From assembly GCA_017511265.1 (NCBI GenBank), contig JAFWKV010000001.1, positions 553 through 64,552 on the forward strand: a stretch of 64,000 bases of DNA, in the 5' to 3' direction. How positions within the stretch are numbered: the stretch's first letter is position 1; each line of letters begins with the position of its first letter. Below the pieces are notes generated by a model, which did no database searches, was not told where the DNA came from, and saw nothing but the letters and a program-made list of their open reading frames with translations. Of this stretch, positions 17,536 to 64,000 are shown one piece after another. This stretch comes from Clostridia bacterium. GTDB lineage: Bacteria > Bacillota > Clostridia > TANB77 > CAG-508. Made by a program: the position numbers and the translations under genes.

Positions 17536-17690
17536 TGCTGTATTTTGGGACGGGGCGACAGGTGATGCCTTGGGGACGGAGGAAAAAGTATCACCTGTTT
17601 AAAATGTTAAATCTAGTTAAAATATAAACAGGTGATACTTTTTCCTCCGTCCCCAAAGCATCACCTGTCGCCCCGTCCCAAAATACAGCA
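17536..17690. repeat. 155-bp modular palindrome (GGGAC-module family)
   Basis: The left arm TGCTGTATTTTGGGACGGGGCGACAGGTGATGCCTTGGGGACGGAGGAAAAAGTATCACCTGTTTA has a near-perfect complement on the right. It starts 2 nt after the dgt-like stop. Confidence 0.9.
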
Positions 17691-19866: not shown

Positions 19867-19906
19867 TTTATTCTTTCCTTATCAGAATCTGCAAATGAGA
19901 ACAGAG

Positions 19907-19939
19907 GTGATACTTTTTCCTCCGTCCCCAAAGTATCAC
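19907..19939. repeat. Solitary GGGGACGGAGG-loop hairpin
   Basis: A 10-bp stem GTGATACTTT/AAAGTATCAC encloses the 13-nt TTCCTCCGTCCCC. The same unit occurs at 52537, 52603, 17.6 kb and 41.1 kb. Confidence 0.75.
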
Positions 19940-22043: not shown

Positions 22044-22066
22044 ATACTACAACAATTCCTATAAAT

Positions 22067-22249
22067 GAAGATGACAATATATAATAATTATTTTCTTTCC
22101 TCGGCTTGCTTCGTGGATTACAAATTCTAAAAGAAAAATCAAAACTTTACCCGAAGACAGGACCCTTTTTGATTTTTCTTTTAGAATTTGTACATTCCAC
22201 TCCACGGCACATTCATCATTTCAAAATTTTTTATATATTATCATCTTCG
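22067..22249. mobile_element. MITE-like element, copy 1 (~183 bp, terminal inverted repeats)
   Basis: TIRs GAAGATGACAATATATAA and TTATATATTATCATCTTCG enclose a hairpin core GGATTACAAATTCTAAAAGAAAAATCAAAA...TTTTGATTTTTCTTTTAGAATTTGTA. Confidence 0.75.
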
Positions 22250-22761
22250 TCTGTAGGAGTTGTTGTATTGTTAGTAGCTTCTTCCTTAACTTCTTCAGCA
22301 CTTTCAGCTTTTTCATAAGCTTCTTCTACTTCGTCCACTATTTCAACTTCTTTAACAGGTTCTTCAGCTTCATCATTATTTTCATCTTCTTCAATTTCTT
22401 CTTGTTTGTCACCACAATTTGGACAGTATTTTGAAGTTTTATCTATTTTTTCATAGCAATTAGAGCACTGTTTTAAGTCTTTTAAATTTAAAATTTCGTT
22501 TAATATATTTTCAATCTCATCAGACAAAACGTCAACTTTTGTACATTCTTCTTCCAATTCTTCTTTTATGTTGATAGTATCTTGTAGCAAATGTTTTTCA
22601 TACACCTTTTTACCTATTTGCTTATATAAATCTTCTATATCAGATTTATCCTCATTCATTTTCATTCTTAATTTAGCCTCTTTTGCAAGTTTACCAGTCT
22701 TCTCAGCAGTAAACTTATAAGTTTCACTAGCCTTTTTTCCAATCTTATCAAAAAAATCCAT
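22231..22761 (-). CDS. Zinc-ribbon domain protein with an acidic C-terminal tail
   Basis: CSNCYEKIDKTSKYCPNCG zinc ribbon. The last six codons and the stop (DEDDNI*) lie inside the MITE terminal repeat. Confidence 0.7.
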   Translation of the reverse strand: MDFFDKIGKKASETYKFTAEKTGKLAKEAKLRMKMNEDKSDIEDLYKQIGKKVYEKHLLQDTINIKEELEEECTKVDVLSDEIENILNEILNLKDLKQCSNCYEKIDKTSKYCPNCGDKQEEIEEDENNDEAEEPVKEVEIVDEVEEAYEKAESAEEVKEEATNNTTTPTDEDDNI

Positions 22762-22858
22762 CTTCCTATTCCCTCCAATTCTATAATTAAATAGATAGTA
22801 TAATTATTATCTATTTAGAAGATAAAAACATATAAAAAGTAAGTAATGCATAGCAACT

Positions 22859-23039
22859 AAGATGACAATATATAAAAAATTTTGAAGAGACGAATGCGCC
22901 GTGGAGTGGAATGTACAAATTCTTAAGAAAAATCAAAAAGGGTCCTGTCTTCGGGTAAAGTTTTGATTTTTCTATTAGAATTTGTAATCCACGAAGCAAG
23001 CCGAGGAAAGAAAAAATTTATTATATATTATCATCTTCG
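22859..23039. mobile_element. MITE-like element, copy 2 (core inverted relative to copy 1)
   Basis: The reverse complement matches the copy 1 core at about 95% by eye, with the same TIRs. The spurious ORFs starting MLRGLQIL on opposite strands reveal the pair. Confidence 0.75.
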
Positions 23040-23108
23040 TTGTCAGAAGTATGTTTTAATTTATAGTTTTTATAATATATTATATATAAAATTATAAACT
23101 ATATACGT

Positions 23109-32415: not shown

Positions 32416-32437
32416 AAGAAAAAAGGAGTAGTACAAA

Positions 32438-32466
32438 AGGGACGCAAACTTGCGTCCCTACTTTTA
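32438..32466 (+). terminator. Rho-independent terminator of the 121-aa gene
   Basis: Stem AGGGACGCAA/TTGCGTCCCT followed by ACTTTTAT. Confidence 0.65.
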
Positions 32467-32860
32467 TGCTGTCTTTTGGGACGGGGCAAAAAAACATCAG
32501 CCTGCTGTCAATGGGGACGTAGCAATTTGACAACCTGCCTTTGGCTAAGTTCCCTTAATTTTTTATATTAGCGCTTGATTGGAATAAGCATTAGAAATTG
32601 TTTAGCTAGAAAATGAGGGATGTTCACGGTACTCGTGTTGAATTATGAATTATAGAAAAATTTGATTTTTCTATAATGAAGAATGATACGCGAGGGACTG
32701 AGTGAAAGAGGCTCATTTTCTAGCCTTACAATTTCTTTGCGAATGAAATGAACAAGCTAATATAAAAAATTAAGGGAACTTAGCCAAAGGCAGGTTGTCA
32801 AATTGCTACATCCCCATTGACAGCAGGTGATGTTTTTTTGCCCCGTCCCAAAAGACAGCA
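32467..32860. repeat. 394-bp nested (Russian-doll) palindrome of the GGGAC-module family
   Basis: The ~105-bp arms (TGCTGTCTTTTGGGACGGGGCAAAAAAACATCAGCCTGCTGTCAATGGGGACGTAGCAATTTGACAACCTGCCTTTGGCTAAGTTCCCTTAATTTTTTATATTAGC) differ at 2 positions. The core equals the 13.2-kb element family, with a further small palindrome inserted at its centre. The right end abuts the mutS stop. Confidence 0.9.
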
Positions 32861-35473
32861 TCACTTCATTTTTTCTTTCATTCTAACCAATGTGTTTAGT
32901 GCATCAATTGGAGTTAGTGCATTTAAATCAACTTGGTCAATCTCGTGAGCTATTTCAGCAAGTTTATAATTAAACATATCAAATTGTCCTTCAACCTGCT
33001 TCTTATCTTCTTTTTCCTGTTTTTTATCTCTTAAAATACTTTTTCTTTCAAGTGTTCTTAAAATCTCATTTGCCTTTTGAGTAACATCTTTAGGTACTCC
33101 TGCAAGTTTGGCAACATGAATTCCATAACTTTCATCTGTACCACCTTTAAGAATTTTTCTTAAAAATATTATATCTTCTCCCTTTTCCTTAACAGCTATT
33201 TGATAATTTTTTACACCTTCTAATCTATTTTCCAGTTCAGTTAATTCATGATAATGTGTTGCAAATAGTGTTTTTGCTCCACATTTTTCTTTGTTTGCAA
33301 TAAAGTCTGCAACAGCCCATGCAATTGAAAGTCCATCATATGTTGATGTTCCTCTCCCTATTTCATCAAGAATTACTAAGCTATTTGATGTGGCTTCCTT
33401 TAGTATTGATGCAACTTCCATCATTTCTACCATAAATGTACTTTGTCCCATACTCAAGTCATCTGATGCTCCAACCCTAGTAAATATTTTATCTACTGCA
33501 CCTATTTTAGCACTTGATGCTGGTACAAAGCTTCCAACTTGTGCCATTAGTGTAATTAACGCTACTTGCCTCATATATGTGGATTTTCCAGCCATATTAG
33601 GTCCTGTAATTATTGCCAATCTATTTTCATCTTTATCCAAATATGTATCATTTTCAACAAAGCTTCCTGTTGGTATCATCTTCTCAATTACAGGATGCCT
33701 ACCATCTTTAATGTCTATTATTCCATTTTGCTTTACCTCTGGCATACAATAATTCATATCTTCTGCAACTTGTGCAAATGATGTTAATACATCTAGTGTT
33801 GCAACAATTGTACTTGAAGTTTGAAGTCTTTTTATATTTTTAGATATTTCTTCTCTAACCTCTGTAAATGCGTTATATTCTAAGTTTACAACCTTTTCTT
33901 CAGCACCTAATACTTTGTTTTCTATTTCTTTTAATTCTTCTGTTATATATCTTTCAGCATTTGTAAGTGTTTGCTTTCTTATAAATCTAGCTGGAACTTG
34001 TGATAAAAATGATTTAGTAACCTCTATATAATACCCAAATACTTTATTAAAGCCTACTTTCAAGTTCTTTATTCCTGTTTTTTCACGTTCTTCCGCTTCT
34101 ATTTTTATAATCCAATTCTTCCCATCTGTAGTTGCTCTTTTTAATTCATCTATTTCTTCGTCATAGCCAAGCTTTATAATTCCACCTTCTTTTATGCTGA
34201 TAGGTGGTTCATCAACTATTGCTTTTTCAATTAAGTCATGCACATCTTGTAACTCGTCTAAATTTTCATGCAATTCTTTCAAATAATCACTTTTACAGTT
34301 ACTTAATACATTTTTCACAGATGGCAATTTTGCAAGTGAACTTTTAAGCGAAATCATATCTCTTGCATTGGCATTACCATAAGCCATTTTACCTGCCAAA
34401 CGCTCAATATCATAAACTTTTTTTAAGCTATCTATAATATCTCCTCTGATCATAATTTCTTCTTTTAGTTCTTTTACAGCACTTAAACGTTTATTAATTT
34501 CAATAACGTCTATTAGTGGGTCATTAAGCCATCTTCTTAGCATACGTCCGCCCATAGAAGTTGAAGTTTTATCTAATACCCAAAGTAAAGTTCCTTTTTT
34601 GCTCTTATCTCTTAGTTTTTCAGTGATTTCTAGGTTTCTTCTTGCATTTATATCTAAAGACATATATTTTGATATATTGTAAATTGTAATTTTGTTTATA
34701 TGTTCTAGGCTTGTTTTTTGAGTTTGTTTTAAGTATTCTAAAAGTGCATTAATTGAAGCTATAGCAATTGATTTTTCTTCTATATTTTCTATTAGATTAT
34801 TAGCTGGGTCTTGTACAGTGAATTTTTCTTTTAATTTGCTACAATCATCTGTAAAAAAAGTATCTCCAAATTTTGTAACATATATATCAAATCTTTCCTT
34901 TATTTTATCCATTTCTTCTCTGCAATCATACATCATACTGTTTACTACAAGCTCTGCTGGATTAAATCTTGCAATTTCATCTAGTACCATTGCAAAATTA
35001 TTTGTTTGCTTAACTTCACTGCTGTAGAATTCACCTGTTGAAACATCACACAAGCTTATTCCAAAGTATATTCCAGTTTTAAAAATTGACATTATATAGT
35101 TGTTTTTTCTTTCTTCTAGCATATTTGATTCTACAATAGTTCCTGGTGTAACTACTCTTATAACATCTCTTTCCACCATTCCCTTTGTTGTTTTTGGGTC
35201 AGTTAATTGCTCACATATTGCAACTTTATAACCTTTTGCTATAAGTTTTGCAATATAGCTTTCTGCAGCATGGTGTGGCACTCCACACATTGGTGCACGT
35301 TCTGCTTGCCCACAATCTCTACCTGTTAAAGTTATTTCTAATTCTCTTGATGCTGTTAGTGCATCATCAAAAAACATTTCGTAGAAGTCACCTAATCTAT
35401 AAAATAATATACAATCTTCATATTGTTTTTTTGTTTCAAAATATTTTTGCATCATTGGTGAATATTCTGCCAT
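32861..35473 (-). CDS. mutS: DNA mismatch repair protein MutS
   Basis: 870 aa, with the MutS N-terminus TPMMQKY and Walker A GPNMAGKST. Confidence 0.95.
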   Translation of the reverse strand: MAEYSPMMQKYFETKKQYEDCILFYRLGDFYEMFFDDALTASRELEITLTGRDCGQAERAPMCGVPHHAAESYIAKLIAKGYKVAICEQLTDPKTTKGMVERDVIRVVTPGTIVESNMLEERKNNYIMSIFKTGIYFGISLCDVSTGEFYSSEVKQTNNFAMVLDEIARFNPAELVVNSMMYDCREEMDKIKERFDIYVTKFGDTFFTDDCSKLKEKFTVQDPANNLIENIEEKSIAIASINALLEYLKQTQKTSLEHINKITIYNISKYMSLDINARRNLEITEKLRDKSKKGTLLWVLDKTSTSMGGRMLRRWLNDPLIDVIEINKRLSAVKELKEEIMIRGDIIDSLKKVYDIERLAGKMAYGNANARDMISLKSSLAKLPSVKNVLSNCKSDYLKELHENLDELQDVHDLIEKAIVDEPPISIKEGGIIKLGYDEEIDELKRATTDGKNWIIKIEAEEREKTGIKNLKVGFNKVFGYYIEVTKSFLSQVPARFIRKQTLTNAERYITEELKEIENKVLGAEEKVVNLEYNAFTEVREEISKNIKRLQTSSTIVATLDVLTSFAQVAEDMNYCMPEVKQNGIIDIKDGRHPVIEKMIPTGSFVENDTYLDKDENRLAIITGPNMAGKSTYMRQVALITLMAQVGSFVPASSAKIGAVDKIFTRVGASDDLSMGQSTFMVEMMEVASILKEATSNSLVILDEIGRGTSTYDGLSIAWAVADFIANKEKCGAKTLFATHYHELTELENRLEGVKNYQIAVKEKGEDIIFLRKILKGGTDESYGIHVAKLAGVPKDVTQKANEILRTLERKSILRDKKQEKEDKKQVEGQFDMFNYKLAEIAHEIDQVDLNALTPIDALNTLVRMKEKMK

Positions 35474-39721: not shown

Positions 39722-41053
39722 ATGGAAAAGATGAAAATTCAAAAATACGAAACTAATTTTAAAAGAAACCTTTTTTGGAAAGAAAGCACATTAAACACAA
39801 AACAATACACAGAAAAACAAGAAAATAAAGTAATAAATGTTTATCCTGTCATATCTTATCAAGAAATAATAGGCTTTGGTGGAGCTTTTACAGAAGCGGC
39901 AGGCTATGCTTATAGTAAGCTAAGTGATTCAAAAAAAGTTGAACTTATAGATGACTATTTTTCACAAAATGGCTTAAACTATTCAATTGGTAGATTACCT
40001 GTCGGGAGTTGTGACTTTTCTCTTAATTCTTATTCATATTCAAAAAGACCAGATTTGTCTGATTTTAGTATAGAAAGAGATAGAAAATATCTCTTACCTT
40101 TTCTGAAATCTTCACTAGAAAAAAGGCAATTGAAATTATTAGCTTCTCCATGGAGCCCTCCAAGCTTTATGAAATCCAATAAAATGCTAAAATTAGGTGG
40201 TAAGCTTTTAAATAAATATTATCAAACTTGGGCAGATTATTTGGTAAAGTATATACAAGCCTATGAATCTGAAAATGTACCTATAAAATACATAACAGTT
40301 CAAAATGAAGCAAATGCAACTCAAATATGGGAATCTTGTTTGTACTCAGCTGAAGAAGAAGTAAATTTTGCAACAAATTATCTATATTATGGTTTTGTAC
40401 ATAATAATATTGATACTAAAATACTGATATGGGATCATAACAAAGAAAAACTTTTTACAAGAGCTCTATCAGAACTAAGCACAGATTCTGCAAAGCAAGC
40501 TATTTCTGGATTTGCATTTCATTGGTATTCTGGTGACCATTTTGAAAATATTAAATTGACACATGATGCTTTTCCTGATAAGCTTTTATTTCATACAGAA
40601 GGCTGTACAGGCTTTTCTCATTTTAGAAAAGAAGATGAAGTTCAAAATGGCGAAATATATGCTCATGATATTTTAGGTGATTTAAATGCCGGTATAAATG
40701 CCTTTATAGACTGGAATTTAATACTTGATCATAAAGGAGGGCCAAATCATAAGTTAAATTACTGCAATAGTCCAATAATGCTAAATGATGCTAATTCTGA
40801 TTATGTTAAAAATTTAACGTATTATTATATTGGGCATTTTAGTAAATTTATTAAACCTGGTAGCAAACGTATTGCTTTTAGTAGATATGATGATAGAATT
40901 GAAGTAACTGCTTTTAAGAATACTGATGGTTCTATTGCTGTTGTTCTTCTGAATCGTAATAATTGGAACTATGAATATAATTTATGTATAAATGATTTTG
41001 TTATTCATGATAATTTAGATAGTCATGCTATTGTTACTTTGGTAATTAAGTAA
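39722..41053 (+). CDS. Glycoside hydrolase family 30 (glucosylceramidase-like)
   Basis: GFGGAFTEAA, ASPWSPPSFMK and ITVQNE motifs. Confidence 0.85.
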   Translation: MEKMKIQKYETNFKRNLFWKESTLNTKQYTEKQENKVINVYPVISYQEIIGFGGAFTEAAGYAYSKLSDSKKVELIDDYFSQNGLNYSIGRLPVGSCDFSLNSYSYSKRPDLSDFSIERDRKYLLPFLKSSLEKRQLKLLASPWSPPSFMKSNKMLKLGGKLLNKYYQTWADYLVKYIQAYESENVPIKYITVQNEANATQIWESCLYSAEEEVNFATNYLYYGFVHNNIDTKILIWDHNKEKLFTRALSELSTDSAKQAISGFAFHWYSGDHFENIKLTHDAFPDKLLFHTEGCTGFSHFRKEDEVQNGEIYAHDILGDLNAGINAFIDWNLILDHKGGPNHKLNYCNSPIMLNDANSDYVKNLTYYYIGHFSKFIKPGSKRIAFSRYDDRIEVTAFKNTDGSIAVVLLNRNNWNYEYNLCINDFVIHDNLDSHAIVTLVIK

Positions 41054-41214
41054 GTGATGCCTTGGGGACGGAGGAAAAAGAAGCGATGCCTTGGGGACGG
41101 AGGAAAAAGTATCACCTGTTTATATTATAGCTAGAATTTACAGTTTAAACAGGTGATACTTTTTCCTCCGTCCCCAAGGCATCGCTTCTTTTTCCTCCGT
41201 CCCCAAGGCATCAC
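41054..41214. repeat. 161-bp modular palindrome (two GTGATGCCTTGGGGACGGAGG-type modules per arm)
   Basis: It begins the base after the GH30 TAA, and its last base is the first base of the convergent gene's stop codon. It shares its inner module with the 17.5-kb palindrome. Confidence 0.9.
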
Positions 41215-41408
41215 TAATTATGGTCGTCAAATAATAATTTAATTCCCCATAATCCTGACACACCTACAAGTGAATAAACAATCCTACTAAGTATTGACAT
41301 ATCTCCAAACAAAGTTGCAACTAAGTCAAATTTAAATAGTCCTATCAATCCCCAGTTGATTGCACCAATTATAATTAAAGTCAAAGCTGTTTTATCTATA
41401 ATTTTCAT
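41214..41408 (-). CDS. DUF378-family small membrane protein
   Basis: IIGAINWGLIGLFKFDLVATLFG signature. The start at MKIIDK follows RBS GGAGGTG. Confidence 0.75.
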   Translation of the reverse strand: MKIIDKTALTLIIIGAINWGLIGLFKFDLVATLFGDMSILSRIVYSLVGVSGLWGIKLLFDDHN

Positions 41409-52115: not shown

Positions 52116-52145
52116 GATGTTTTTTGGGACGGGGCAAAAAACATC
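52116..52145. repeat. Solitary GGGAC-family hairpin
   Basis: GATGTTTTTTG-GGACGGGG-CAAAAAACATC. It has the same loop as the unit at 51409 but a different stem word. Confidence 0.65.
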
Positions 52146-52215
52146 TTTTTATTAATTAAATCATAATATCATCTATTTTACAACTCTTAAGTCGAATTTT
52201 GTCGATGAAAAGTTC

Positions 52216-52244
52216 TTGCTTTTACGCTGTTTCCATAATATAAT
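52216..52244 (+). promoter_or_regulatory. Putative promoter of the 24-codon ORF
   Basis: TTGCTT (52216..52221), a 17-nt spacer, then TATAAT (52239..52244). Confidence 0.4.
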
Positions 52245-52289
52245 AATTACACCTCTTTATAGAGAGTATCTTTACAAGGAGGTGATGTT

Positions 52290-52364
52290 ATGACTAGTTA
52301 CGAATTAATCTTTTTCTTAATAATTTTATTATTAGAAAAAGATAATGACAAAAGTCAAGATTAG
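52290..52364 (+). CDS. 24-aa ORF with a strong SD (candidate small toxic or leader peptide)
   Basis: AAGGAGGTG lies 7 nt upstream of the ATG. The product is MTSYELIFFLIILLLEKDNDKSQD*, and a terminator follows directly. Confidence 0.4.
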   Translation: MTSYELIFFLIILLLEKDNDKSQD

Positions 52365-52379
52365 TACATAACTAATCAT

Positions 52380-52412
52380 AAAAAACAGGTAGCTGTAGAC
52401 TACCTGTTTTTT
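52380..52412. terminator. Bidirectional rho-independent terminator
   Basis: AAAAA-ACAGGTAG-CTGTAGA-CTACCTGT-TTTTT. The A-run and T-run flanks allow termination in both directions. Confidence 0.65.
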
Positions 52413-52466
52413 GTTATGTCTAGTTACGACTTAATAACAAAAGTCAATTTTGCAATTGCTAATATT

Positions 52467-52495
52467 ATAATACTATTTTTTTTCTCTTTTGTCAA
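52467..52495 (-). promoter_or_regulatory. Putative minus-strand promoter firing toward the bidirectional terminator (candidate antisense sRNA)
   Basis: The minus strand reads TTGACA (52495..52490), a 17-nt spacer, then TATTAT (52472..52467). Confidence 0.4.
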
Positions 52496-52536
52496 TATTT
52501 TTTGTCTTATTTTTCCAATTTTTATTTAAAATTTTA

Positions 52537-52633
52537 TGATACTTTTTCCTCCGTCCCCAAAGTATCAGCTTTTGCCTAATTTTTCCATTTTTTATTTCTA
52601 TGTGATACTTTTTCCTCCGTCCCCAAAGTATCA
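52537..52633. repeat. Tandem pair of GGGGACGGAGG-loop hairpins downstream of rsgA
   Basis: TGATACTTT-TTCCTCCGTCCCC-AAAGTATCA occurs at 52537..52567 and 52603..52633, within a ~65-bp tandem duplication. Confidence 0.8.
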
Positions 52634-52672
52634 TAAATTTTGCAAAAGTTGTTATACCTTTCTTTTGCAATT

Positions 52673-56758: not shown

Positions 56759-56822
56759 GGAAAACTTTTTTAAAACGTCCCCAAAAGTTTTCCACAGTCC
56801 ACCCTGTCCCCAAAAGTTTTCC
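56759..56822. repeat. GGGAC-family hairpin plus half-repeat, overlapping the cotJC stop
   Basis: GGAAAACTTTT-TTAAAACGTCCCC-AAAAGTTTTCC is followed by a second GTCCCCAAAAGTTTTCC. The last base is the first base of the cotJC stop codon. Confidence 0.75.
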
Positions 56823-57398
56823 TAATAAAATTTCTTTGCTGCTAGTCTGTCTTGTACGCCACGTAGTGCTTCGCCAAAACGTTGAAAATGCACCACTTCT
56901 CTTTGTCTTAAATAACGTAATGGGTCTATTACTTCTGGATTGTCTTTACTTAAGTCAATTAATTTTTCATACGTTGCACGTGCTTTTTGTTCTGCTGCTA
57001 GGTCTTCTTGTAAGTTTGCTATTGGATCTCCTTTTGCTGCAATATATGCTGCTGTAAATGGTACTCCTGCTGCTGATACTGGATATACATCTAATCCATG
57101 GTCTGTATAATATGCATCCAAACCAGCTTCTTTTATTTCTTCTATTGTAGCTCCTTTTGTCAATTGGTTTACTATAGTTCCTACCATTTCTAAGTGAGCC
57201 AATTCTTCTGTTCCGGATATCATTTAAAATTGCTTTTGAAGTTTGGTCAGGCATTCCAAATCGTTGAGATAAATACCTTAATGATGCAGCAAGTTCTCCG
57301 TCTGGGCCACCATATTGAGAAATAATATTTTTAGCAAGTTTCAAGTCTTTACACTTTATATTTATTGGGTATTGTAGCATTTTGTTATAAGTCCACAT
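56822..57398 (-). pseudogene. cotJC: Manganese-catalase-family spore coat protein CotJC, frameshifted
   Basis: The N-terminal ORF reads MWTYNKMLQYPINIK...YGGPDGELAASLRYLSQRFGMPD...ILNDI. The rest, GTEELAHLEM...AAEQKARATYE..., is in the ORF 56822..57223. An extra C in GATATC-C-GGAACA (about 57216) separates them. Confidence 0.85.
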
Positions 57399-57437
57399 TT
57401 AAAAATTCCCCCTTTCCCATGGCCACCCTTCGTTTAG
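57399..57437 (-). other. cotJB: Displaced 3' end of cotJB (encodes ...LNEGWPWERGNF*)
   Basis: My translation of the minus strand gives CTA AAC GAA GGG TGG CCA TGG GAA AGG GGG AAT TTT TAA. The TAA directly abuts the cotJC ATG (TAAATG). Confidence 0.75.
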
Positions 57438-57438
57438 A

Positions 57439-59031
57439 TTAGGAACATATATTAAATTTATATTTTATATTAATATTTCTATCGTCTATGATTATTTTAT
57501 CTATTAATTTAAATAATAAGCTTTTACTTGCATCATTTATTTCATTAAAGCTCATGATTTTTTTCATATTTTCTTTAAATTCATTATTTCCAATAATTAT
57601 TTCTTTATCTGTTTTATCACATTCTTGTTTATATATTTCCATTTTTCTTTCATATTCTTTCTTTTGTTTTTCATATTTTTTTACTAATACATTAAATGTA
57701 TCATTAGATATTACCTCTGATATTTTATCTTCATATAAATTACTTATAATCTTATTTAATTCTTCCATTTTTTTAGTTAGTTTTATTAATTCAGATTTTT
57801 TATTATTTTTTTTTATTCTATCCTTGTTATAGTCTAGTTGTTCTATGTTTAAATATTTTTTTATATTACTTTTTATAGCTTCTGTTACTAATCTGATAAG
57901 TTCATCTTCTCTTATATGGACATTACTACAGAATTTATTACCATATTTTTTGTATCTTGAACAAATACATCTAAAATTTTTTCCATGATTTTTATTATAT
58001 GTTATTCTACTGCCACATTTGCAAAATACTAGTCCTGTAAGAAGATGCTTTTCTTTGTTTGAATAATTCCATTCATTAGTTTGTTTATTCAGCATTTCTT
58101 GTACTATGTCAAAGTCAGCTCTTTCAATTATAGCTTTATGATTATCGAGAACAATAATTTGATTTTCTGTTGGAACTTTTGACGTTCTTTTTATCTTGTA
58201 ATTTATCTTTTTGTTTTTTAGTTGAACTAAATCTCCAGCATAAATTCTATCTCTTAATATTTTATTTATTACAGTAGAATTCCATTGGTATGTTGTGTGC
58301 TTTTTGCAATTAGGATTAAAATAATTTGTGGTTTCTTCTTTGTATTTAAGTGGTGTTATTATTCCCATATCGTTAAATATATTTGCTATTTGCGTTTTGC
58401 TTTTTCCTTTTTTATACAATCTAAAAATCATTTTAACATTTTCTGATACATTTTCATCAACTATAATTTTGTTTTTATTATTATTGTCTTTTTTGTATCC
58501 ATATGGTAAAAATGCTTTTATACAATCTCCACATTTTGCTTTTGTTTCTATTGCTGACCTGACTTTGTTTGATATGTCTTTTGCGTACATATCATTTATA
58601 ACAGATTTAAACGGTGTCATATCATTATTACTGTTATATTGATCATATGTATCAATATTATCGTTTACTGCTATATATCTTACCATTTTTGTTGGAAAAT
58701 ATTTTTCTACATACATGCCAACTCCAATATGGTCTCTTCCAAGTCTTGAAAGGTCTTTTGTTATTACAAGGTTTACTAACCCTCTTTCTATGTCGTTTAA
58801 TAAATTCTGAAATCCTGGTCTTTCAAAATTAGTACCTGTATATCCATCATCATAATAAACATTTGCTAATGTCCATTTTTGTTCTTTAACTATAGATTTT
58901 AAAAACTTAATTTGGTTTTCTATGCTCTCTGATATGTTTTTGTATTTTTCTTCTTTTTCGTCTTCTTTTGAAAGTCTCGCATATATTGCTACTTTCCATT
59001 TTATATTATAGTCATTATATAACCTGTTCAT
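57439..59031 (-). CDS. Large serine recombinase (SpoIVCA/TnpX/phage-integrase type)
   Basis: Resolvase catalytic domain (VAIYARLSKED, SIENQ, DDGYTGTNFERPGF, KDLSRLGRD), followed by recombinase and zinc-ribbon (CKCGS...C.CSRY) domains and a coiled-coil tail. Confidence 0.9.
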   Translation of the reverse strand: MNRLYNDYNIKWKVAIYARLSKEDEKEEKYKNISESIENQIKFLKSIVKEQKWTLANVYYDDGYTGTNFERPGFQNLLNDIERGLVNLVITKDLSRLGRDHIGVGMYVEKYFPTKMVRYIAVNDNIDTYDQYNSNNDMTPFKSVINDMYAKDISNKVRSAIETKAKCGDCIKAFLPYGYKKDNNNKNKIIVDENVSENVKMIFRLYKKGKSKTQIANIFNDMGIITPLKYKEETTNYFNPNCKKHTTYQWNSTVINKILRDRIYAGDLVQLKNKKINYKIKRTSKVPTENQIIVLDNHKAIIERADFDIVQEMLNKQTNEWNYSNKEKHLLTGLVFCKCGSRITYNKNHGKNFRCICSRYKKYGNKFCSNVHIREDELIRLVTEAIKSNIKKYLNIEQLDYNKDRIKKNNKKSELIKLTKKMEELNKIISNLYEDKISEVISNDTFNVLVKKYEKQKKEYERKMEIYKQECDKTDKEIIIGNNEFKENMKKIMSFNEINDASKSLLFKLIDKIIIDDRNINIKYKFNICS

Positions 59032-59069
59032 TGTTCCTCCTCTCTAAAATTATATAAATGACTACTTAC

Positions 59070-59183
59070 CTATTTTTTGTTTTGATAAAATAAAAACTTA
59101 TAATTTTCATCAACCCATTCTTGTATTAGTTCTTGTATGTTTTTGCCTTCTTTAGTATATGTTTCTTTTACTCTGTTTTCCAT
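59070..59183 (-). CDS. Possible 37-aa ORF upstream of the recombinase
   Basis: My translation gives MENRVKETYTKEGKNIQELIQEWVDENYKFLFYQNKK*. It is below the track cutoff and has no clear RBS, so this is speculative. Confidence 0.25.
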   Translation of the reverse strand: MENRVKETYTKEGKNIQELIQEWVDENYKFLFYQNKK

Positions 59184-59231
59184 TAATATCACCTCAGTAA
59201 AATATATTTTTTTAATAATATATAAATTACC

Positions 59232-59265
59232 AACAACAAAAAAGGCATCTATTTTTTAGATACCT
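59232..59265 (-). terminator. Terminator after the ABC transporter gene
   Basis: An imperfect 8-bp stem (AGGTATCT/AGATGCCT on the minus strand) followed by TTTTTGTTG. Confidence 0.45.
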
Positions 59266-59283
59266 TTTTATATAATTGTATTT

Positions 59284-61698
59284 TTATTCTGTTTTTAATG
59301 ATTCAACAGGGTCTTTTTTGCTTGCCATACTAGCTGGTCCAATTCCTGAGAATACTGTTAGTCCCATACTGATTAATATTAGTATAATTGCATGTACAGG
59401 TGATAATAACATAATATTGTCTATTTTTGCAAGCAAGCTGACTATTGCATTTATTCCTAGTGATAGTATAAAACTTACAGCTATTCCTAAAACACCTGAA
59501 GCTAAGCCTTCAATAATTGTTTCAGCTCTAAATACCCTTTTTACGTCTTTTTTACTAGCACCAATTGCACGTAAAATTCCAATTTCTTTTGTTCTTTCTA
59601 ATACTGATATGTATGTAATAATACCAATCATCAAGCTTGAAACTATTAAAGATATTGCTACAAAAGCAATCATAACCATTGATATCATAGAAACAATTTG
59701 AGATATACCTTGTGTTAAACTTTCCATTTGGTCTACATATATAATTTTATCTTCTTCGTTTGCTTGATTATTATATGTTTCTATAAATTTCTTTATTTCA
59801 GCTTTAGAATTTGCATCTTTTGGATAAATATTTATTGTATATGGATTTTCAAGTTTCCCTGATCCTAATATTTTCAAGTTCTTTTCATAAGTTGAATTTA
59901 TACCGTCAAATGCTTCTCCTGTAAATATGTTAATATTTTTATTAGCCATTTGTTCTTTTACTATTTCTGTTTCATTTGCTGTATTCATGTAATCTTCTAT
60001 TAATTCATGTGTATATCCTAAAAATCCACTAGGTGTATTTTTGTCTTTTACTTTTATGATTCCTGTGATTTTTAATTCAGGTGCTTTATTATACAATTCT
60101 TTAATAAATTCACTGTCATTTTCTCTACTTACCCATGTGTTTCCAACCTTTTGATAATAATCGCTACCTTTAATTATTCTATATGTCTTTCCAATCAATT
60201 TATCAAAGTCATAAGAAATATCTTCTGCTTTAACTTTTTCCCCATTTGAGGCTTTTTCTGTAAATTTAGCAATATCAGCTCTGTCTTCTATGTCTAATGA
60301 ATACATTGTTGTGAGTGATAATTCATTGTTTTCGTCTACTACAAGTGCTAGTTCATTTTTTGATTTTGGCATAGTACCTGAAACTACTTCATATTGGTCA
60401 CTATTTTTTAGCTCTTTAAATGAGTTTTTTAATAAATTAATTGAAAATAAGTCTCCTAATATTCCTTCATCTGATGTTTCAGAATCGTCAATTGGATTGA
60501 TTTTTGTTATGTTTCCGTTTTTGCCTGTGTCATATAATTGTATGTTTACATTATACGTGTACTGAATAAAAGAAGAAAATTTGTCTGTTTCGTTTTTGTG
60601 TTGTTCAATATATTCTTTCATTTTTTGTAGGTTGTTTTTCTTTGTTGCTGACTTTGAGCTAAGTGTCAAGTTTGTAGAAATGTCATCTTTAGCAACTATT
60701 GTGTCTTTATGCTCATTTTTTTCGTTTTTGATTTCTATTGTGTCAGTTTGTGTTCCTGTGTCTGAAACACTTGCTGTACTTTCCATACTTACAGCTTGAG
60801 TTGCTGATGATTCTTTTTGCATATTATTTGCATATTCTGTAACACCATTTGATAATGATAATACAAGTGCAATACCAATTATACCAATGCTTCCGGCTAT
60901 TGCTGTTACTAATGTTCTGCCTCTTTTGGTCATTAAGTTGTTTTTACTTAACGATAAAGCTGTAAGTAAACTCATTGAACTTCTCTTTTTATTATCATCT
61001 GAGTCTGTAGCTTCATTTCCATCAAATGGTTCTGTATCATCTATTATATGGCCATCTTTTAAGCTTACTATTCTAGTTGAATATTTTTGTGCAAGTTCTG
61101 GGTTGTGTGTAACCATTATAACTAGTTTTTCTTTTGCTACTTCTTTTAGTAAATCCATTATTTGTACACTTGTTTCTGAATCTAATGCACCTGTTGGCTC
61201 GTCAGCTAATATTATATCTGGATTATTTACTAATGCTCTTGCTATTGCAACTCTTTGCATTTGGCCTCCAGATAGTTGTCTTGGCTTTTTGTTTATGTGT
61301 TCTCCTAGTCCCACTTTTTTTAATGCTTCTGTAGCTCTTTTTTTGCGTTCTGATTTTGAAACACCTGATAGTGTCAATGCTAGTTCTACGTTGGATAGAA
61401 CTGATTGGTGTCCAATTAAATTGTAACTTTGAAATATAAATCCTATTTTGTGGTTTCTATATGTGTCCCAATTACTATCTTTATATTCCTTTGTACTAAT
61501 TCCGTTTATTATTAGTTCTCCTGTTGTATAGTGGTCTAATCCTCCTATTATGTTTAGTAATGTTGATTTACCACTACCACTTTGTCCTAAAATAGATACA
61601 AATTCATTTTTTCTAAAGTTGATTGAGACATTATCTAATGCTTTTTGCTCGATTGTGTCCATTTTATATATTTTAGTTATATTTTTTAAGGTTAACAT
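59284..61698 (-). CDS. Fused ABC transporter ATPase-permease (MacB/FtsX type)
   Basis: N-terminal NBD (GQSGSGKST, LSGGQMQR, ILADEP), a long extracytoplasmic domain, and a C-terminal FtsX-like 4-TM domain. Confidence 0.85.
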   Translation of the reverse strand: MLTLKNITKIYKMDTIEQKALDNVSINFRKNEFVSILGQSGSGKSTLLNIIGGLDHYTTGELIINGISTKEYKDSNWDTYRNHKIGFIFQSYNLIGHQSVLSNVELALTLSGVSKSERKKRATEALKKVGLGEHINKKPRQLSGGQMQRVAIARALVNNPDIILADEPTGALDSETSVQIMDLLKEVAKEKLVIMVTHNPELAQKYSTRIVSLKDGHIIDDTEPFDGNEATDSDDNKKRSSMSLLTALSLSKNNLMTKRGRTLVTAIAGSIGIIGIALVLSLSNGVTEYANNMQKESSATQAVSMESTASVSDTGTQTDTIEIKNEKNEHKDTIVAKDDISTNLTLSSKSATKKNNLQKMKEYIEQHKNETDKFSSFIQYTYNVNIQLYDTGKNGNITKINPIDDSETSDEGILGDLFSINLLKNSFKELKNSDQYEVVSGTMPKSKNELALVVDENNELSLTTMYSLDIEDRADIAKFTEKASNGEKVKAEDISYDFDKLIGKTYRIIKGSDYYQKVGNTWVSRENDSEFIKELYNKAPELKITGIIKVKDKNTPSGFLGYTHELIEDYMNTANETEIVKEQMANKNINIFTGEAFDGINSTYEKNLKILGSGKLENPYTINIYPKDANSKAEIKKFIETYNNQANEEDKIIYVDQMESLTQGISQIVSMISMVMIAFVAISLIVSSLMIGIITYISVLERTKEIGILRAIGASKKDVKRVFRAETIIEGLASGVLGIAVSFILSLGINAIVSLLAKIDNIMLLSPVHAIILILISMGLTVFSGIGPASMASKKDPVESLKTE

Positions 61699-61843
61699 TG
61701 TTTTCCTCCTTTTTTAGTGTTTAGTTTAATACTGTATTTTTATTTTTATAGATTTTTTTATTATGAAACAAAATGGACTAGATAAGGCTAGTCCATTTTG
61801 CTTTCATTTTTTGCTGACTTAAATTAAATAGACTTGTTTTTTA

Positions 61844-62227
61844 TTATTCTTGTGATCTTACTTTATATATTGCTATTAAGGTAATTACATCAAGAATTAA
61901 ATCCACAATACCTGTTACTCTTTGGTTTACAAAGAATCCAACAATTGCTCCAACAAGTCCAAGTATTAATAATACCATTAACAATGTTCCTTTGCTTTTG
62001 TCATTGATTATTCTTCTTATAAGCCACCAAAACCATAAATAAACTAAAGCACTTGTTACTGCTGTAACTCCTACAAAGATTTTTGGATCTATTCCATTTG
62101 TTTGTCCTGCAATGGCTTGCATTGCCTCATTACTGCTTATAGAAATGAGCATAAAAACAATACCAAGAATTGCATATATCATATAAAGCCAACTCATTCC
62201 TTTTAGCCAACTTTTAGCTTTTTCCAT
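61844..62227 (-). CDS. Hypothetical 4-TM membrane protein (element cargo)
   Basis: Hydrophobic ORF. The start at the second ATG has better spacing to RBS AAAGGGGA. Confidence 0.5.
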   Translation of the reverse strand: MEKAKSWLKGMSWLYMIYAILGIVFMLISISSNEAMQAIAGQTNGIDPKIFVGVTAVTSALVYLWFWWLIRRIINDKSKGTLLMVLLILGLVGAIVGFFVNQRVTGIVDLILDVITLIAIYKVRSQE

Positions 62228-62320
62228 GACCATATCCCCTTTCTCTTTAATTCGCTTATATTGTACTATAAAAGAAATAATTTGTCAATAATTTGTATTT
62301 TTTCTTTTATTTTGGGTGAT

Positions 62321-62650
62321 TCATTTATTTTTTCCTATTTTGAACGCAGGCCATGGTTGCTCTAACCATCTCCATTTATTACATGGATAGTTGATTGTAA
62401 GTGGTCCATATATTTTTTGATATTCGTCTTTTAGTTCTTTACATTCTTTACAGTATTTTTTGTGAAGGCAAAGGGCTTTTTTGTCTTCTGGATGTGTGTC
62501 TAGATATAATGCTAGTTCTGTTATAGCGAAGTCTAAACTTCTGATTTCATCTGCCATTTCTCTTCTTATTTTTTCTTTTTCACAGCAGGTTTTATCTTCG
62601 TTTTCTTCTGCTGGCATATTTCCTTGCATCATCATTGCCATTGTGTTCAT
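62321..62650 (-). CDS. cotJB: Spore coat protein CotJB, 5' portion with an element-derived tail (interrupted gene)
   Basis: LDFAITELALYLDTHPEDKKAL...YGPLT...NKWRWLEQPWP matches the CotJB family. It then runs into 8 residues (AFKIGKNK*) inside the inserted element. The ATG at 62650 overlaps the cotJA TGA. Confidence 0.8.
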   Translation of the reverse strand: MNTMAMMMQGNMPAEENEDKTCCEKEKIRREMADEIRSLDFAITELALYLDTHPEDKKALCLHKKYCKECKELKDEYQKIYGPLTINYPCNKWRWLEQPWPAFKIGKNK

Positions 62651-63021
62651 TCCTCTATCTTCTTCCGACATTTGTTACACCCCTCTCCTATTTTATTTGT
62701 TGCTTCTAAATATTCTATTTCTTTCATTGATTGTCCTGGACAGTATGGGCTTACTAGTTCTGGATAGATTGTTCCCATTTTTAGGCCTATATTTGGTTTG
62801 AATGTTTTATCCATATATTGGATTGGTACATAGCTTTGACCTAACATAGGGGTTTGTGGGAATACGTTTTCTTCTTCTCCAAATCCACATTCGCATTCGT
62901 CGTCATAGTCTGGACATTGACAGTATTCGTGTTGACATGCTTCTTCTAGCTTTTCTTTTTCGCATTTGTTGTCTTGGTTGTTGTTCATACAGCAATATCT
63001 TCTTATTCTACGATTGTACAT
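62647..63021 (-). CDS. cotJA: Spore coat-associated protein CotJA
   Basis: LGQSYVPIQYMDKTFKPNIGLKMGTIYPELVSPY matches the CotJA core motif. It lies upstream of cotJB. Confidence 0.8.
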   Translation of the reverse strand: MYNRRIRRYCCMNNNQDNKCEKEKLEEACQHEYCQCPDYDDECECGFGEEENVFPQTPMLGQSYVPIQYMDKTFKPNIGLKMGTIYPELVSPYCPGQSMKEIEYLEATNKIGEGCNKCRKKIEE

Positions 63022-63070
63022 TTTTTTTCCTCCTTTTCGTTTATATTACATAATATGAAAAAGAGTGAAA

Positions 63071-63304
63071 AAAAGTGATGCCTTAGCTGTCTTTTGGGAC
63101 GGTGTTGTCAATGGGGAAGGAGCTGTCAATGGGGACGTGCTTAAATGAAAACGTGTCAATGGGGACGGGTTTAAATGACACACATTAAAAATGTGTGTCA
63201 TTTAAGCCCGTCCCCATTGACACGTTTTCATTTAAGCACGTCCCCATTGACAGCTCCTTCCCCATTGACAACACCGTCCCAAAAGACAGCTAAGGCATCA
63301 CTTT
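63071..63304. repeat. 234-bp near-perfect palindrome with three TGTCAATGGGGA(A/C)G modules per arm
   Basis: The ~115-bp arms differ at one position, and the centre is CACATTAAAAATGTG. The outer shell reuses GTGATGCC and CTGTCTTTTGGGACGG words seen elsewhere. Confidence 0.9.
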
Positions 63305-63340
63305 TCCTTAAGTTATTATTCTCTGATATAATTTCTCTTT

Positions 63341-64000
63341 TTATTGATTTAACCCATAAATAAGTTTCGTGTTATAATAATTAGAATTTTTTTCTAATTC
63401 ATTTTTTACATAATTCAGACCATATTTTCCAATAAGTGTTTTTTCATTTGAAAATAAATTAGTTCCTAACCCTAATTTGTTTCCCTCTATCTTTACACCA
63501 AGACTTGCAAGTGTTGTAGGAAACATATCCATTGTTGAACCATATTTATATTTAGTATTTTCAGGAAAAACCGCAGGATTTATAATTATGTCTACTACAG
63601 TTCTTTCATAACCACTATCTCTTATTTCATTAAAAGTTTCAGGTTGCATACTTGTATGGTCACCACATATTATTATTGTTGTATTATCATAAAATTCCTG
63701 TTCCTGTATCCATTCAACAAACTGTTTAATCTTTTTAGACGAACAATTCAGTACATTAAAATACTGTTCTTCAAATTCTTCATCACATTCTTCACATTTA
63801 AATCCATCTGGGGCATGTGTATCAGCTGTTAGCATAGTAAAATTAAATGGCATTTCTTGTTCAGACATCAACATAATTTTTTCTTTTGCATATTCAAATA
63901 GGTCACTATCTGGAAATCCCCACCATACAAAGTCTCCAGCATCTTTTTTTTCTTCTTTTACAGCTTGATTAAAATCAAATATTTGGTAATTTCCATGTTC
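63341..64000 (-). CDS. LTA-synthase/sulfatase-family protein, C-terminal part (5' end beyond the window)
   Basis: ICGDHTS and GLGTNLFS are typical of the LtaS extracellular domain. The frame stays open upstream of the listed Met to position 64000 (...DFVWWGFPDSDLFEYAKEKIMLMSEQE). Confidence 0.8.
   Translation of the reverse strand, partial: EHGNYQIFDFNQAVKEEKKDAGDFVWWGFPDSDLFEYAKEKIMLMSEQEMPFNFTMLTADTHAPDGFKCEECDEEFEEQYFNVLNCSSKKIKQFVEWIQEQEFYDNTTIIICGDHTSMQPETFNEIRDSGYERTVVDIIINPAVFPENTKYKYGSTMDMFPTTLASLGVKIEGNKLGLGTNLFSNEKTLIGKYGLNYVKNELEKNSNYYNTKLIYGLNQ

Follow-up and report, generated by a model that had tools for sequence, protein, structure and literature searches.

A stretch of 64,000 nucleotides from a Clostridia bacterium (assembly GCA_017511265.1, contig JAFWKV010000001.1, positions 553 to 64,552), below called the window, carries close to its end a palindrome of 235 bp (63071..63305, listed without a strand), which consists of a G-rich arm, a 3-nt centre at 63187-63189 and a C-rich arm and is seen in a repeat search, in folding and in independent assemblies. 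It lies, as a preliminary description of the sequence had stated, between the stop codon of a Sulfatase/LtaS-like gene and the start codon of cotJA, both on the minus strand. The 3′ part of the upstream gene occupies 63341..64000 (stop codon 63341-63343; PF00884) and the gene continues past the window end, and the downstream cotJA spans 62647..63021 with its ATG at 63021 (Pfam PF11007). Directly past the hairpin foot the transcribed strand has a T7 tract (63068..63074, minus strand), the first four T of which pair with an A4 at the opposite foot, and just past the palindrome starts a conserved block of the cotJA upstream region, TTTTTCATATTATGTAATATAAA (63040..63062, minus strand). The palindrome is a member of a dispersed repeat family and not a one-off regulatory device. 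It is quite probably a cluster of 4 + 4 units that resemble repetitive extragenic palindromic (REP) sequences, built like a REP doublet forming hairpin (REPIN) or a bacterial interspersed mosaic element (BIME) of the TIRtron type, which has been spread in trans by a REP-associated tyrosine transposase (RAYT) and now sits in the terminator slot upstream of cotJA.

The two arms (63071-63186 and 63190-63305) were found by the repeat search to be 116 nt each, 99% complementary and 3 nt apart, with a single C/T mismatch in GGGTTTAAAT versus GGGCTTAAAT; the near-perfect palindrome of tandem units and its sole mismatch had both been recognized in the preliminary description. Likewise, the three direct repeats per arm described there, two of them followed by (T/G)G(C/T)TTAAATGA, are present, the latter word coming after both inner units, and an outer TGTCTTTTGGGACGG unit is additional to them. 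Each arm is accordingly made of four direct units, the outer TGTCTTTTGGGACGG and three TGTCAATGGGGA(A/C)G, with start-to-start distances of 18, 18 and 30 nt. In the left arm (63071..63186, plus strand) the G-rich core is on the plus strand, and the units are located at 63088-63102 (TGTCTTTTGGGACGG) and at 63106-63120, 63124-63138 and 63154-63168 (TGTCAATGGGGA[A/C]G[G/T]), preceded by an outermost word, GTGATGCCTTAG at 63075-63086, that is half of a type-A word (for the unit types see below). The right arm (63190..63305, minus strand) contains the same four units inverted, at 63208-63222, 63238-63252, 63256-63270 and 63274-63288, with a CCGTCCC/CGTCCCC core on the plus strand. Exact TGTCAATGGGGA occurs eight times in the window, six times in the palindrome and twice at 32.5 kb, and if up to 2 mismatches are allowed the count is 10, where 3.3 would be expected. 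Folded as RNA, the palindrome reaches -230 kcal/mol (z = -37.6 versus shuffles). The 99% identity of the arms could reflect a recent origin or correction between the arms. The TTGACA hexamer, described earlier as -35-like, turned out to be the complement of the unit stem TGTCAA, and the sigma-70 promoter candidate was dropped as no such site is found inside the palindrome.

The units of the palindrome belong to a family of about 25 with a shared core (G)GGGACG(G), which is distributed over seven intergenic sites of the window. The strict heptamer GGGACGG/CCGTCCC is observed 18 times against 0.55 expected from composition, and the core units are strictly extragenic, with 0 inside genes. Three unit types can be distinguished: type A (33 nt; GTGATACTTT-GGGGACGGAGGAA-AAAGTATCAC), type B (30 nt; GATGTTTTTT-GGGACGGGGC-AAAAAACATC) and type C, the unit of the 63-kb palindrome (TGTCAATGGGGACG). 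The types are mixed within the elements, as B+A at 17.5 kb, as B+C at 32.5 kb and as half-A+B+C+C+C at 63 kb. Besides the 63-kb palindrome there are three further composite palindromes, likewise listed without a strand. The first, of 155 bp (17536..17690), has the order B+A, centre, inverted A+B and lies between the convergent ends of an HD-domain gene and trmB; the second, of 396 bp (32466..32861), has B+C units in each arm around a 183-bp centre and lies between the convergent ends of a 121-aa open reading frame and mutS; and the third, of 164 bp (41052..41215), has the order A+A, a non-palindromic centre and inverted A+A. All four are arranged as a G-rich arm followed by a C-rich arm. Single units also occur as hairpins, one of type A just 3′ of the RNase P RNA gene (19905..19939, minus strand; DNA fold z -4.3) and one of type B just upstream of rpe (52116..52145, plus strand; DNA fold z -7.0), and two type-A hairpins form part of a 66-bp tandem repeat downstream of rsgA (52537..52634, minus strand), one 66-bp copy of which is missing from another assembly of this species (L098).

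The neighbours of the family are housekeeping genes, namely trmB, the RNase P RNA gene (rnpB), mutS, a GH30 gene, rsgA and rpe, and most of the sites are either between convergent gene ends or just past a gene. The 17.5-kb and 41-kb elements have a homologous non-palindromic centre in opposite orientations and are therefore copies of one element and not convergently evolved hairpins. The earlier expectation that the unit recurs is borne out by the seven sites of the family, with TGTCAATGGGGA itself also present twice at 32.5 kb. The more specific claim that the outer words recur in the 17.5-, 32.5- and 41-kb elements is only partly right. Of the separate words, CTGTCTTTTGGGACGG has exact copies at 32.47 and 32.85 kb and the variant CTGTATTTTGGGACGG at 17.5 kb, and GTGATGCCTT is found as GTGATGCCTTGGGGACGG at 17.5 and 41 kb; no second copy exists of the 28-mer that joins them. 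An ordinary bidirectional terminator hairpin, AAAAGGGACGCAAACTTGCGTCCCTACTTTT (32432-32460), still directly adjoins the 32.5-kb element, so that this element was added alongside a terminator and did not replace it.

Outside the window, the type-A word TTGGGGACGGAGGAAAAAG was looked for in a collection with one genome for each species and found at 76 loci (L010-L085), none from the species of the window (NCBI proteins MBR3249086-MBR3249114) and most from Collinsella (Actinomycetota; 60% GC). The word is found there in at least seven different intergenic contexts beside terminators and not at one conserved gene, in the form TGATCCCTT-GGGGACGGAGGAA-AAAG that is often closed into a hairpin by GGGATCA; within the fetched flanks of the Collinsella loci no RAYT gene was found. 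The same 26-nt word, TGATCCCTTGGGGACGGAGGAAAAAG, is shared by these Collinsella contexts (for example L015 5060-5078 and 7293-7311), one of which follows the gene of formate-tetrahydrofolate ligase. Five of the 76 loci are from low-GC Clostridia metagenome-assembled genomes (MAGs), with hairpins such as GATGATTTT-GGGGACGGAGGAAAAAG-TCATC. Two of the 76 loci were picked out by tblastn with IS200 and Escherichia coli RAYT sequences as queries, and were then confirmed with Pfam and NCBIfam. The first, in a Clostridia MAG (L014, 4299-5060), encodes a 253-aa Y1_Tnp protein (Pfam E 3.5e-13) that scores far better against the NCBIfam REP-associated tyrosine transposase (E 2.4e-20) than against IS200 (1.8e-3), and has AATGATTTTGGGGACGGAGGAAAAAGTCATT upstream on the G-rich strand and its inverse downstream. 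The second, in a spirochaete (L061), encodes a 163-aa RAYT above the NCBIfam cut-off; the gene is preceded by arrays of GGACGGAGGAAGAAAATA units and followed by inverted CCTCCGTCCC units. Instead of single hairpins, some RAYT loci thus have short units in long tandem arrays, such as GGACGGAGGAAGAAAATA x4 in the spirochaete locus (6610-6710) and many GGGACGGTCCT in the flanks of L118-L120. The 12-mer AATGTGTGTCAT at the centre of the 63-kb palindrome (63178-63201) also occurs in L014 (5110-5135), between the upstream unit and the RAYT start, which may be chance.

At E <= 1e-5 there are 2021 homologues of the L014 protein, most of them about 246-250 aa long and many encoded on very short contigs. 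In L014, L103-L106 and L107 (10001-10744)/L108 (803-1543) the gene, with 61-66% protein identity, is found in the same order, ABC-F gene, RAYT, tex, and such a fixed place is what one would expect if the gene were domesticated and passed on vertically. The L107 gene has ATGATTTTGGGGACGGAGGAAAAAATCAT units on both sides and a further inverted doublet past tex, whereas the loops of the units flanking the L103-L106 genes, whose protein is 61% identical, read GGGGTCGGAGAC; unit and enzyme thus change together. A search of the PDB with the single L014 sequence gave no match, whereas the best match of a protein profile was the E. coli TnpArep (4ER8, E 2.3e-5). The residues invariant in the profile are N62, H63 and H65, which form the HuH motif as NHAH, and Y124-I-H-x-N128-P129, the class-2 signature Y---NP. 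The REP-associated model NF047646 is matched at E of about 1e-20 versus about 2e-3 for the IS200 model NF033573, the clostridial proteins remaining just under the cut-off of the former (72-74 versus 80 bits). They are 246-253 aa long and have a C-terminal extension, in the tail of which there are sub-threshold matches to HTH_24/HTH_26.

The association of the core motif with RAYT genes follows a strict polarity. A profile of 18 RAYT proteins was used to collect 80 RAYT loci from JGI metagenomes with a GC content of 25-58%. Within 300 nt upstream of the gene, GGGACGG is found 49 times in sense and once in antisense orientation, and within 600 nt downstream 3 times in sense and 55 times in antisense orientation, as opposed to 0.22 sense and 0.09 antisense occurrences per kb at more than 1 kb from the gene. 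The motif is present on both sides in 37 of the 80 loci, and the four composite palindromes of the window have a polarity equal to that of the units around the RAYT genes. At the RAYT loci the units are hairpins, the stems of which vary by locus and the apex of which is invariant, GGGGACGGTTC in the commonest class. In a hand-picked covariation alignment of 34 units, each of six stem pairs has 6-22 sequences changed on both sides with the pairing kept, and among all 165 distinct units 35% have at least 6 bp of flank complementarity, compared to 6% after permutation of the right flanks (maximum 11.5% in 200 permutations). Several loci come close to the units of the window: in L145 the RAYT gene has five direct TGTCATTGGGGACGG units upstream and four inverted ones downstream, a close match to the type-C unit and to the layout of the two arms, L160, L149 and L176 have GTGTCAAGGGGACGG...TTGACAC hairpins, likewise close to type C, and the units of L124 and L125 resemble type B.

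What stands in the place of the palindrome elsewhere can be seen from related genomes, in which the syntenic loci were reached via CotJA homologues. In L087, with a CotJA that is 88% identical, the gene order DUF6020-Sulfatase-cotJA-cotJB is as in the window, and the spacer is only 63 bp long: stop codon, AACCTCACATTTTGAGGTT, ATTTTT and CATATTATGTAATATAAA...AGGAGG...ATG. The same small hairpin is found upstream of cotJA in L088 and L089, where the upstream gene is of the GtrA family, and a different small hairpin followed by T7 GCACTC is found in L086 (94% identical). The slot of the relatives is filled by a hairpin of 19 nt and a run of T5-T7, the corresponding arrangement in the window being palindrome, T7, CACTC and TTTTTCATATTATGTAATATAAA, and this last block is kept in the window, L086, L087, L088 and L091, with or without the palindrome. 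No family unit was found in about 100 kb of these relatives' loci. Since the relatives have a plain terminator hairpin in the slot, and the T-run and the cotJA block are kept, the palindrome occupies the position of the terminator. It also has the two features by which an intrinsic terminator is recognized, a stable hairpin and directly after it a U-tract, here as the T7 on the minus strand in the slot shared with the relatives, and the T7 is a candidate U-tract of an intrinsic terminator for the Sulfatase/LtaS-like gene. Following the palindrome on the transcribed strand, it suggests that the palindrome most likely now serves as the terminator and as the 3′-end-stabilizing hairpin of the upstream gene. 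Of the three roles proposed earlier, to insulate, terminate or regulate, the place in the relatives' slot and the T7 fit the first two, whereas the palindrome, treated there as a local regulatory or protein-binding device, is part of a dispersed repeat family. Further along the cotJ operon, cotJB and cotJC, adjacent in L088, are about 4.9 kb apart in the window (56816-62321), and the DNA between them encodes a 129-aa membrane protein, an ABC transporter (59284-61698) and a large serine recombinase (57439-59031); cotJC (56816-57398, minus strand) matches in two frames and looks frameshifted near codons 62-70.

A plausible course of events can be proposed along the lines of known REP systems. 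The TnpAREP proteins are HUH single-strand nucleases related to the IS200/IS605 transposases that bind REPs in their folded single-stranded form, co-evolve with them and are thought to spread REP, BIME and REPIN sequences (PMC3333891, PMC8266576, PMC6006769, PMC5581495), and single strands of REP/BIME sequence were cleaved and recombined by TnpAREP in in vitro assays (PMC3333891, PMC8266576). Similarly, a RAYT encoded elsewhere in the genome of the Clostridia bacterium would recognize the folded single-stranded units, cut and rejoin them and thereby copy inverted pairs or arrays into new intergenic sites, a movement that may be continuing. Between the Sulfatase/LtaS-like gene and cotJA, one such array would have inserted into the terminator hairpin or taken its place. 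The palindrome and the T7 would then terminate transcription and give the mRNA of the Sulfatase gene a very stable 3′ hairpin, which would insulate the cotJ promoter. REPs are found mostly past genes and have been credited with both termination and mRNA stabilization (PMC3733652).

Several observations weigh against this reading. First, no Y1 transposase gene was found by tblastn in the window or in the 10 kb past its end, so that the cognate enzyme of this genome is deduced from the other organisms. Next, the empty site was seen in another species (88% CotJA identity) and not in an insert-free strain, as every contig with an identical CotJA that reaches the site has the palindrome, and no presence/absence of the 63-kb element within the species was seen among the contigs examined. 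The classical REP tag GT[AG]G is absent at the hairpin foot, which often reads TGAT/ATCA instead. A single arm of the palindrome folds no better than shuffled sequence (z -0.48), and the type-C units are weak hairpins alone, their pairing being with the opposite arm; but lone A and B units fold well, and the structural unit at 63 kb is therefore the whole inverted array. The 34 sequences of the covariation alignment were chosen by eye from 66, the permutation test on all 165 being the unbiased version. Finally, termination is read from the sequence only, and a simple terminator scan reports no terminator here, its rules counting at most 20 pairs and probably missing a hairpin this long.

Among the alternatives, the one that fares best, though unlikely, is a locally evolved device acting in cis, either a giant terminator working in both directions or a series of sites at which a sporulation or nucleoid protein binds to control cotJ, without any mobility and with its likeness to the other sites due to a shared binding protein. 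The palindrome is indeed located exactly in the terminator slot and is followed by the T7, its units have a regular spacing of 18, 18 and 30 nt, and most family members lie between gene ends. However, the same units are found beside unrelated housekeeping genes (mutS, trmB, rnpB, rpe, GH30), a 19-nt hairpin suffices in the relatives, copies have non-palindromic centres in common, and the motif flanks RAYT genes across phyla.

It is less probable still that the element is a miniature inverted-repeat transposable element (MITE) derived from an ordinary DDE-type insertion sequence, the transposase of which would bind the multiple TGTC... units near the ends, an arrangement known from Tn7, Mu, IS21 and Tn402. 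The long terminal inverted repeats, the sub-terminal direct repeats starting with TGT, the several intergenic copies and the empty site in relatives would all be in line with such an element. Yet none of the four composite elements is bordered by a target-site duplication, as their flanks extend the palindrome rather than repeat directly, and nothing similar is present in a plasmid collection. In addition, single units occur as free-standing hairpins, and the genes that the core motif accompanies in a strict polarity are Y1 and not DDE genes.

About equally improbable is a relic in place, in which a former RAYT locus (REPtron) at this site would have lost its transposase gene by deletion between the flanking arrays. 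The layout of the arrays in L145 equals the two arms of the 63-kb palindrome with the gene removed, so that the 4 + 4 arrangement and the polarity would be accounted for; as Quentin et al. note, such structures can arise when the centre between inverted REP dimers is deleted (PMC6006769). Against this, the RAYT gene of four related Clostridia lineages is at one conserved place, between the ABC-F gene and tex, and not beside cotJ, the relatives have a plain terminator at the site, and the window contains three more composite palindromes of the same polarity.

The palindrome has been recovered repeatedly from independent material. A megahit contig from another sample (ERZ28019015; L001/L109) spans it entirely with unique flanks on both sides, the contig of the window itself has unique flanks on either side, and in three further samples (L002, L008 and L009) the centre is crossed and the C/T mismatch is identical, with five further contigs ending within the palindrome as expected at a repeat. 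That the inverted duplication was made by an assembler is thus highly improbable: assembly is known to be at risk at long inverted repeats, and many contigs stop within the palindrome, but four assemblies from different samples and assemblers share its centre and single mismatch, and both the window and L001/L109 have unique flanks on both sides, so the foldback artefact that had been feared is not borne out. The related concern that a hairpin of this size would be unstable is answered in part only, by the identical sequence in four independent samples, which indicates that the palindrome persists in the population. Separately, one arm of the 63-kb or 17.5-kb element is joined to quite different flanks in L009 (1-150) and L195 (890-1044), and these joins, which may mark further copies outside the window, are either chimeric assemblies through other repeat copies or real rearrangements between repeat clusters.

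Several other searches gave nothing. Over the window, only RNase P and a tRNA reach the Rfam gathering score, and at relaxed E-values the palindromes match only plant and animal miRNA-precursor models below threshold, as generic long hairpins would. There were 0 matches to the type-A word in viral contigs and 0 to GATRCYTTGGGGACGGAGGAAAAAG in JGI metagenomes, blastn of the 63-kb and 32.5-kb elements against plasmids gave no match, and a literature search by sequence words returned only chance matches in unrelated papers. Of the other candidate functions, a small open reading frame MPWGRRKK was rejected because its frame is not kept in other species, a hammerhead-like core because it had no Rfam support, CsrA-type GGA loops because the motif is also present in Collinsella, and a Shine-Dalgarno mimic or anti-Shine-Dalgarno sequence because the orientation relative to transcription is not fixed.

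The window has further repeats of its own. Two copies, in opposite orientations, of another palindromic MITE-like element of about 185 bp (22066-22250 and 22856-23041), with ends AAGATGAYAATATATAA and an internal 26-bp hairpin, are unrelated to the GGGGACGG family and flank the gene of a zinc-ribbon protein (22231-22761, minus strand). The 576-bp spacer between rsgA and rpe has two related segments (52150-52500), TTGACTTTTGT.ATTA ... CGTAACTAG.CATAAC, together with a strong terminator hairpin, AACAGGTAGTCTACAGCTACCTGTT, and promoter-like TTGACA/TATAAT words, and may encode a small RNA or a small toxin-antitoxin pair.

To our knowledge, REP/RAYT systems have been studied almost only in Proteobacteria, with recognition rules known for GTAG-tagged hairpins, and such repeats have hardly been described in gut Clostridia. 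In the present family the enzyme-specific information seems to reside in the hairpin apex, with a species-variable stem, which would make it a second and easily assayed type of substrate. This apex rule across phyla and the size and perfection of the 63-kb cluster may be the novel points. The locus provides a concrete case of a repeat cluster in place of a terminator directly upstream of a sporulation operon, and a near-perfect palindrome of 235 bp that is kept across samples is useful for understanding how Firmicutes tolerate long palindromes. For annotation and assembly, the repeat family explains the contig breaks at these sites in this organism.

Of the known repeat systems, the long-hairpin MITEs such as Correia/NEMIS, RUP, BOX and ERIC are similar in being non-coding, 100-400 bp long and located beside genes, with long inverted repeats that likely form co-transcribed hairpins, and the BOX elements also in their modular build. 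They are DDE-dependent and have target duplications, however, whereas here none are seen and the associated enzyme is of the Y1 HUH type. Every unit of the window has a CGTC in its C-rich strand (CCGTCCCC), as have the CGTC-tagged REPs (PMC3733652), but those have an unpaired tag below a stem of 8-9 bp with a loop of 4-5 nt, at its foot, and no associated transposase, whereas here the CGTC is in the apex and a RAYT-type gene is associated, so the likeness is probably superficial.

The resemblance to the REP/BIME/REPIN-RAYT systems, exemplified by the E. coli REPtron and the Pseudomonas REPINs, is considerably closer. In both, short hairpin units are dispersed between genes, mostly after gene ends, and form inverted pairs and clusters, and units in inverted orientation flank a Y1 HUH gene, which here is seen in other organisms and is probably single-copy. 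Units and protein diverge together, as in L103 versus L107, the best solved relative of the protein is 4ER8, and types A (33 nt, z -4.3) and B (30 nt, z -7.0) fall within the 20-40 nt of REP hairpin units. In contrast to REPs and REPINs, the units have no GT[AG]G tag at the foot but an invariant GGGGACGG at the top of the hairpin, with the stem free to vary, and are therefore not canonical GTAG REPs. Other differences are the host, a low-GC Clostridia MAG, and the 2 x 116 nt of the palindrome, much longer than a typical REPIN, as well as the clostridial proteins themselves, which with about 250 aa, a C-terminal extension and 72-74 versus 80 bits differ from the REP-associated family. In the REP survey of Di Nocera, Firmicutes and Clostridia are not mentioned (PMC3733652), and Bertels et al. 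only remark that Clostridia, too, have Group 1 RAYTs and that the flanking words are of low copy number.

A still better counterpart is provided by the TIRtrons, in which RAYT-like TIRYT genes are flanked by inverted repeats that share GGGGWSAS and occur in dimers, clusters and moderately abundant families (PMC3733652). Quentin et al. describe TIRYT as TnpA-Y1 subclass 2.1, whose proteins measure about 238 aa, end in an HTH-like C-terminal tail and have "no REP" (PMC6006769). The RAYT-like gene with G-rich inverted flanking repeats and the dimers and clusters are common to the two, the sub-threshold helix-turn-helix matches in the tail of the present proteins may correspond to the HTH-like tail, and GGGGACGG fits GGGGWSAS at 7 of 8 positions, with G and not A at position 7. 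The protein signatures differ, as the present family has NHAH and YIHxNP, whereas subclass 2.1 has NHVH or NH[YF]H and YIELNP or Y[IV]HLNP (PMC6006769). No REP-like hairpins are reported for that subclass, whereas the flanking units here are clearly hairpins, and any assignment to 2.1 would be tentative. RAYT genes accompanied by hairpins with a GGGGACGG apex come from Clostridia, from a spirochaete and from metagenomic loci with a GC content of 25-58%, whereas Collinsella has such hairpins as orphan units. We tentatively propose that such hairpins, with their covarying stems, could be the cognate substrates of a RAYT clade extending across phyla, which may correspond to the supposedly REP-less subclass 2.1/TIRYT group and which in this Clostridia lineage would have expanded, building stably tolerated, near-perfect palindromes of more than 200 bp that serve as terminators. 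The closest described systems to the repeat family of the window are the REPtrons and, more precisely, the TIRtrons with their TIRYT genes.

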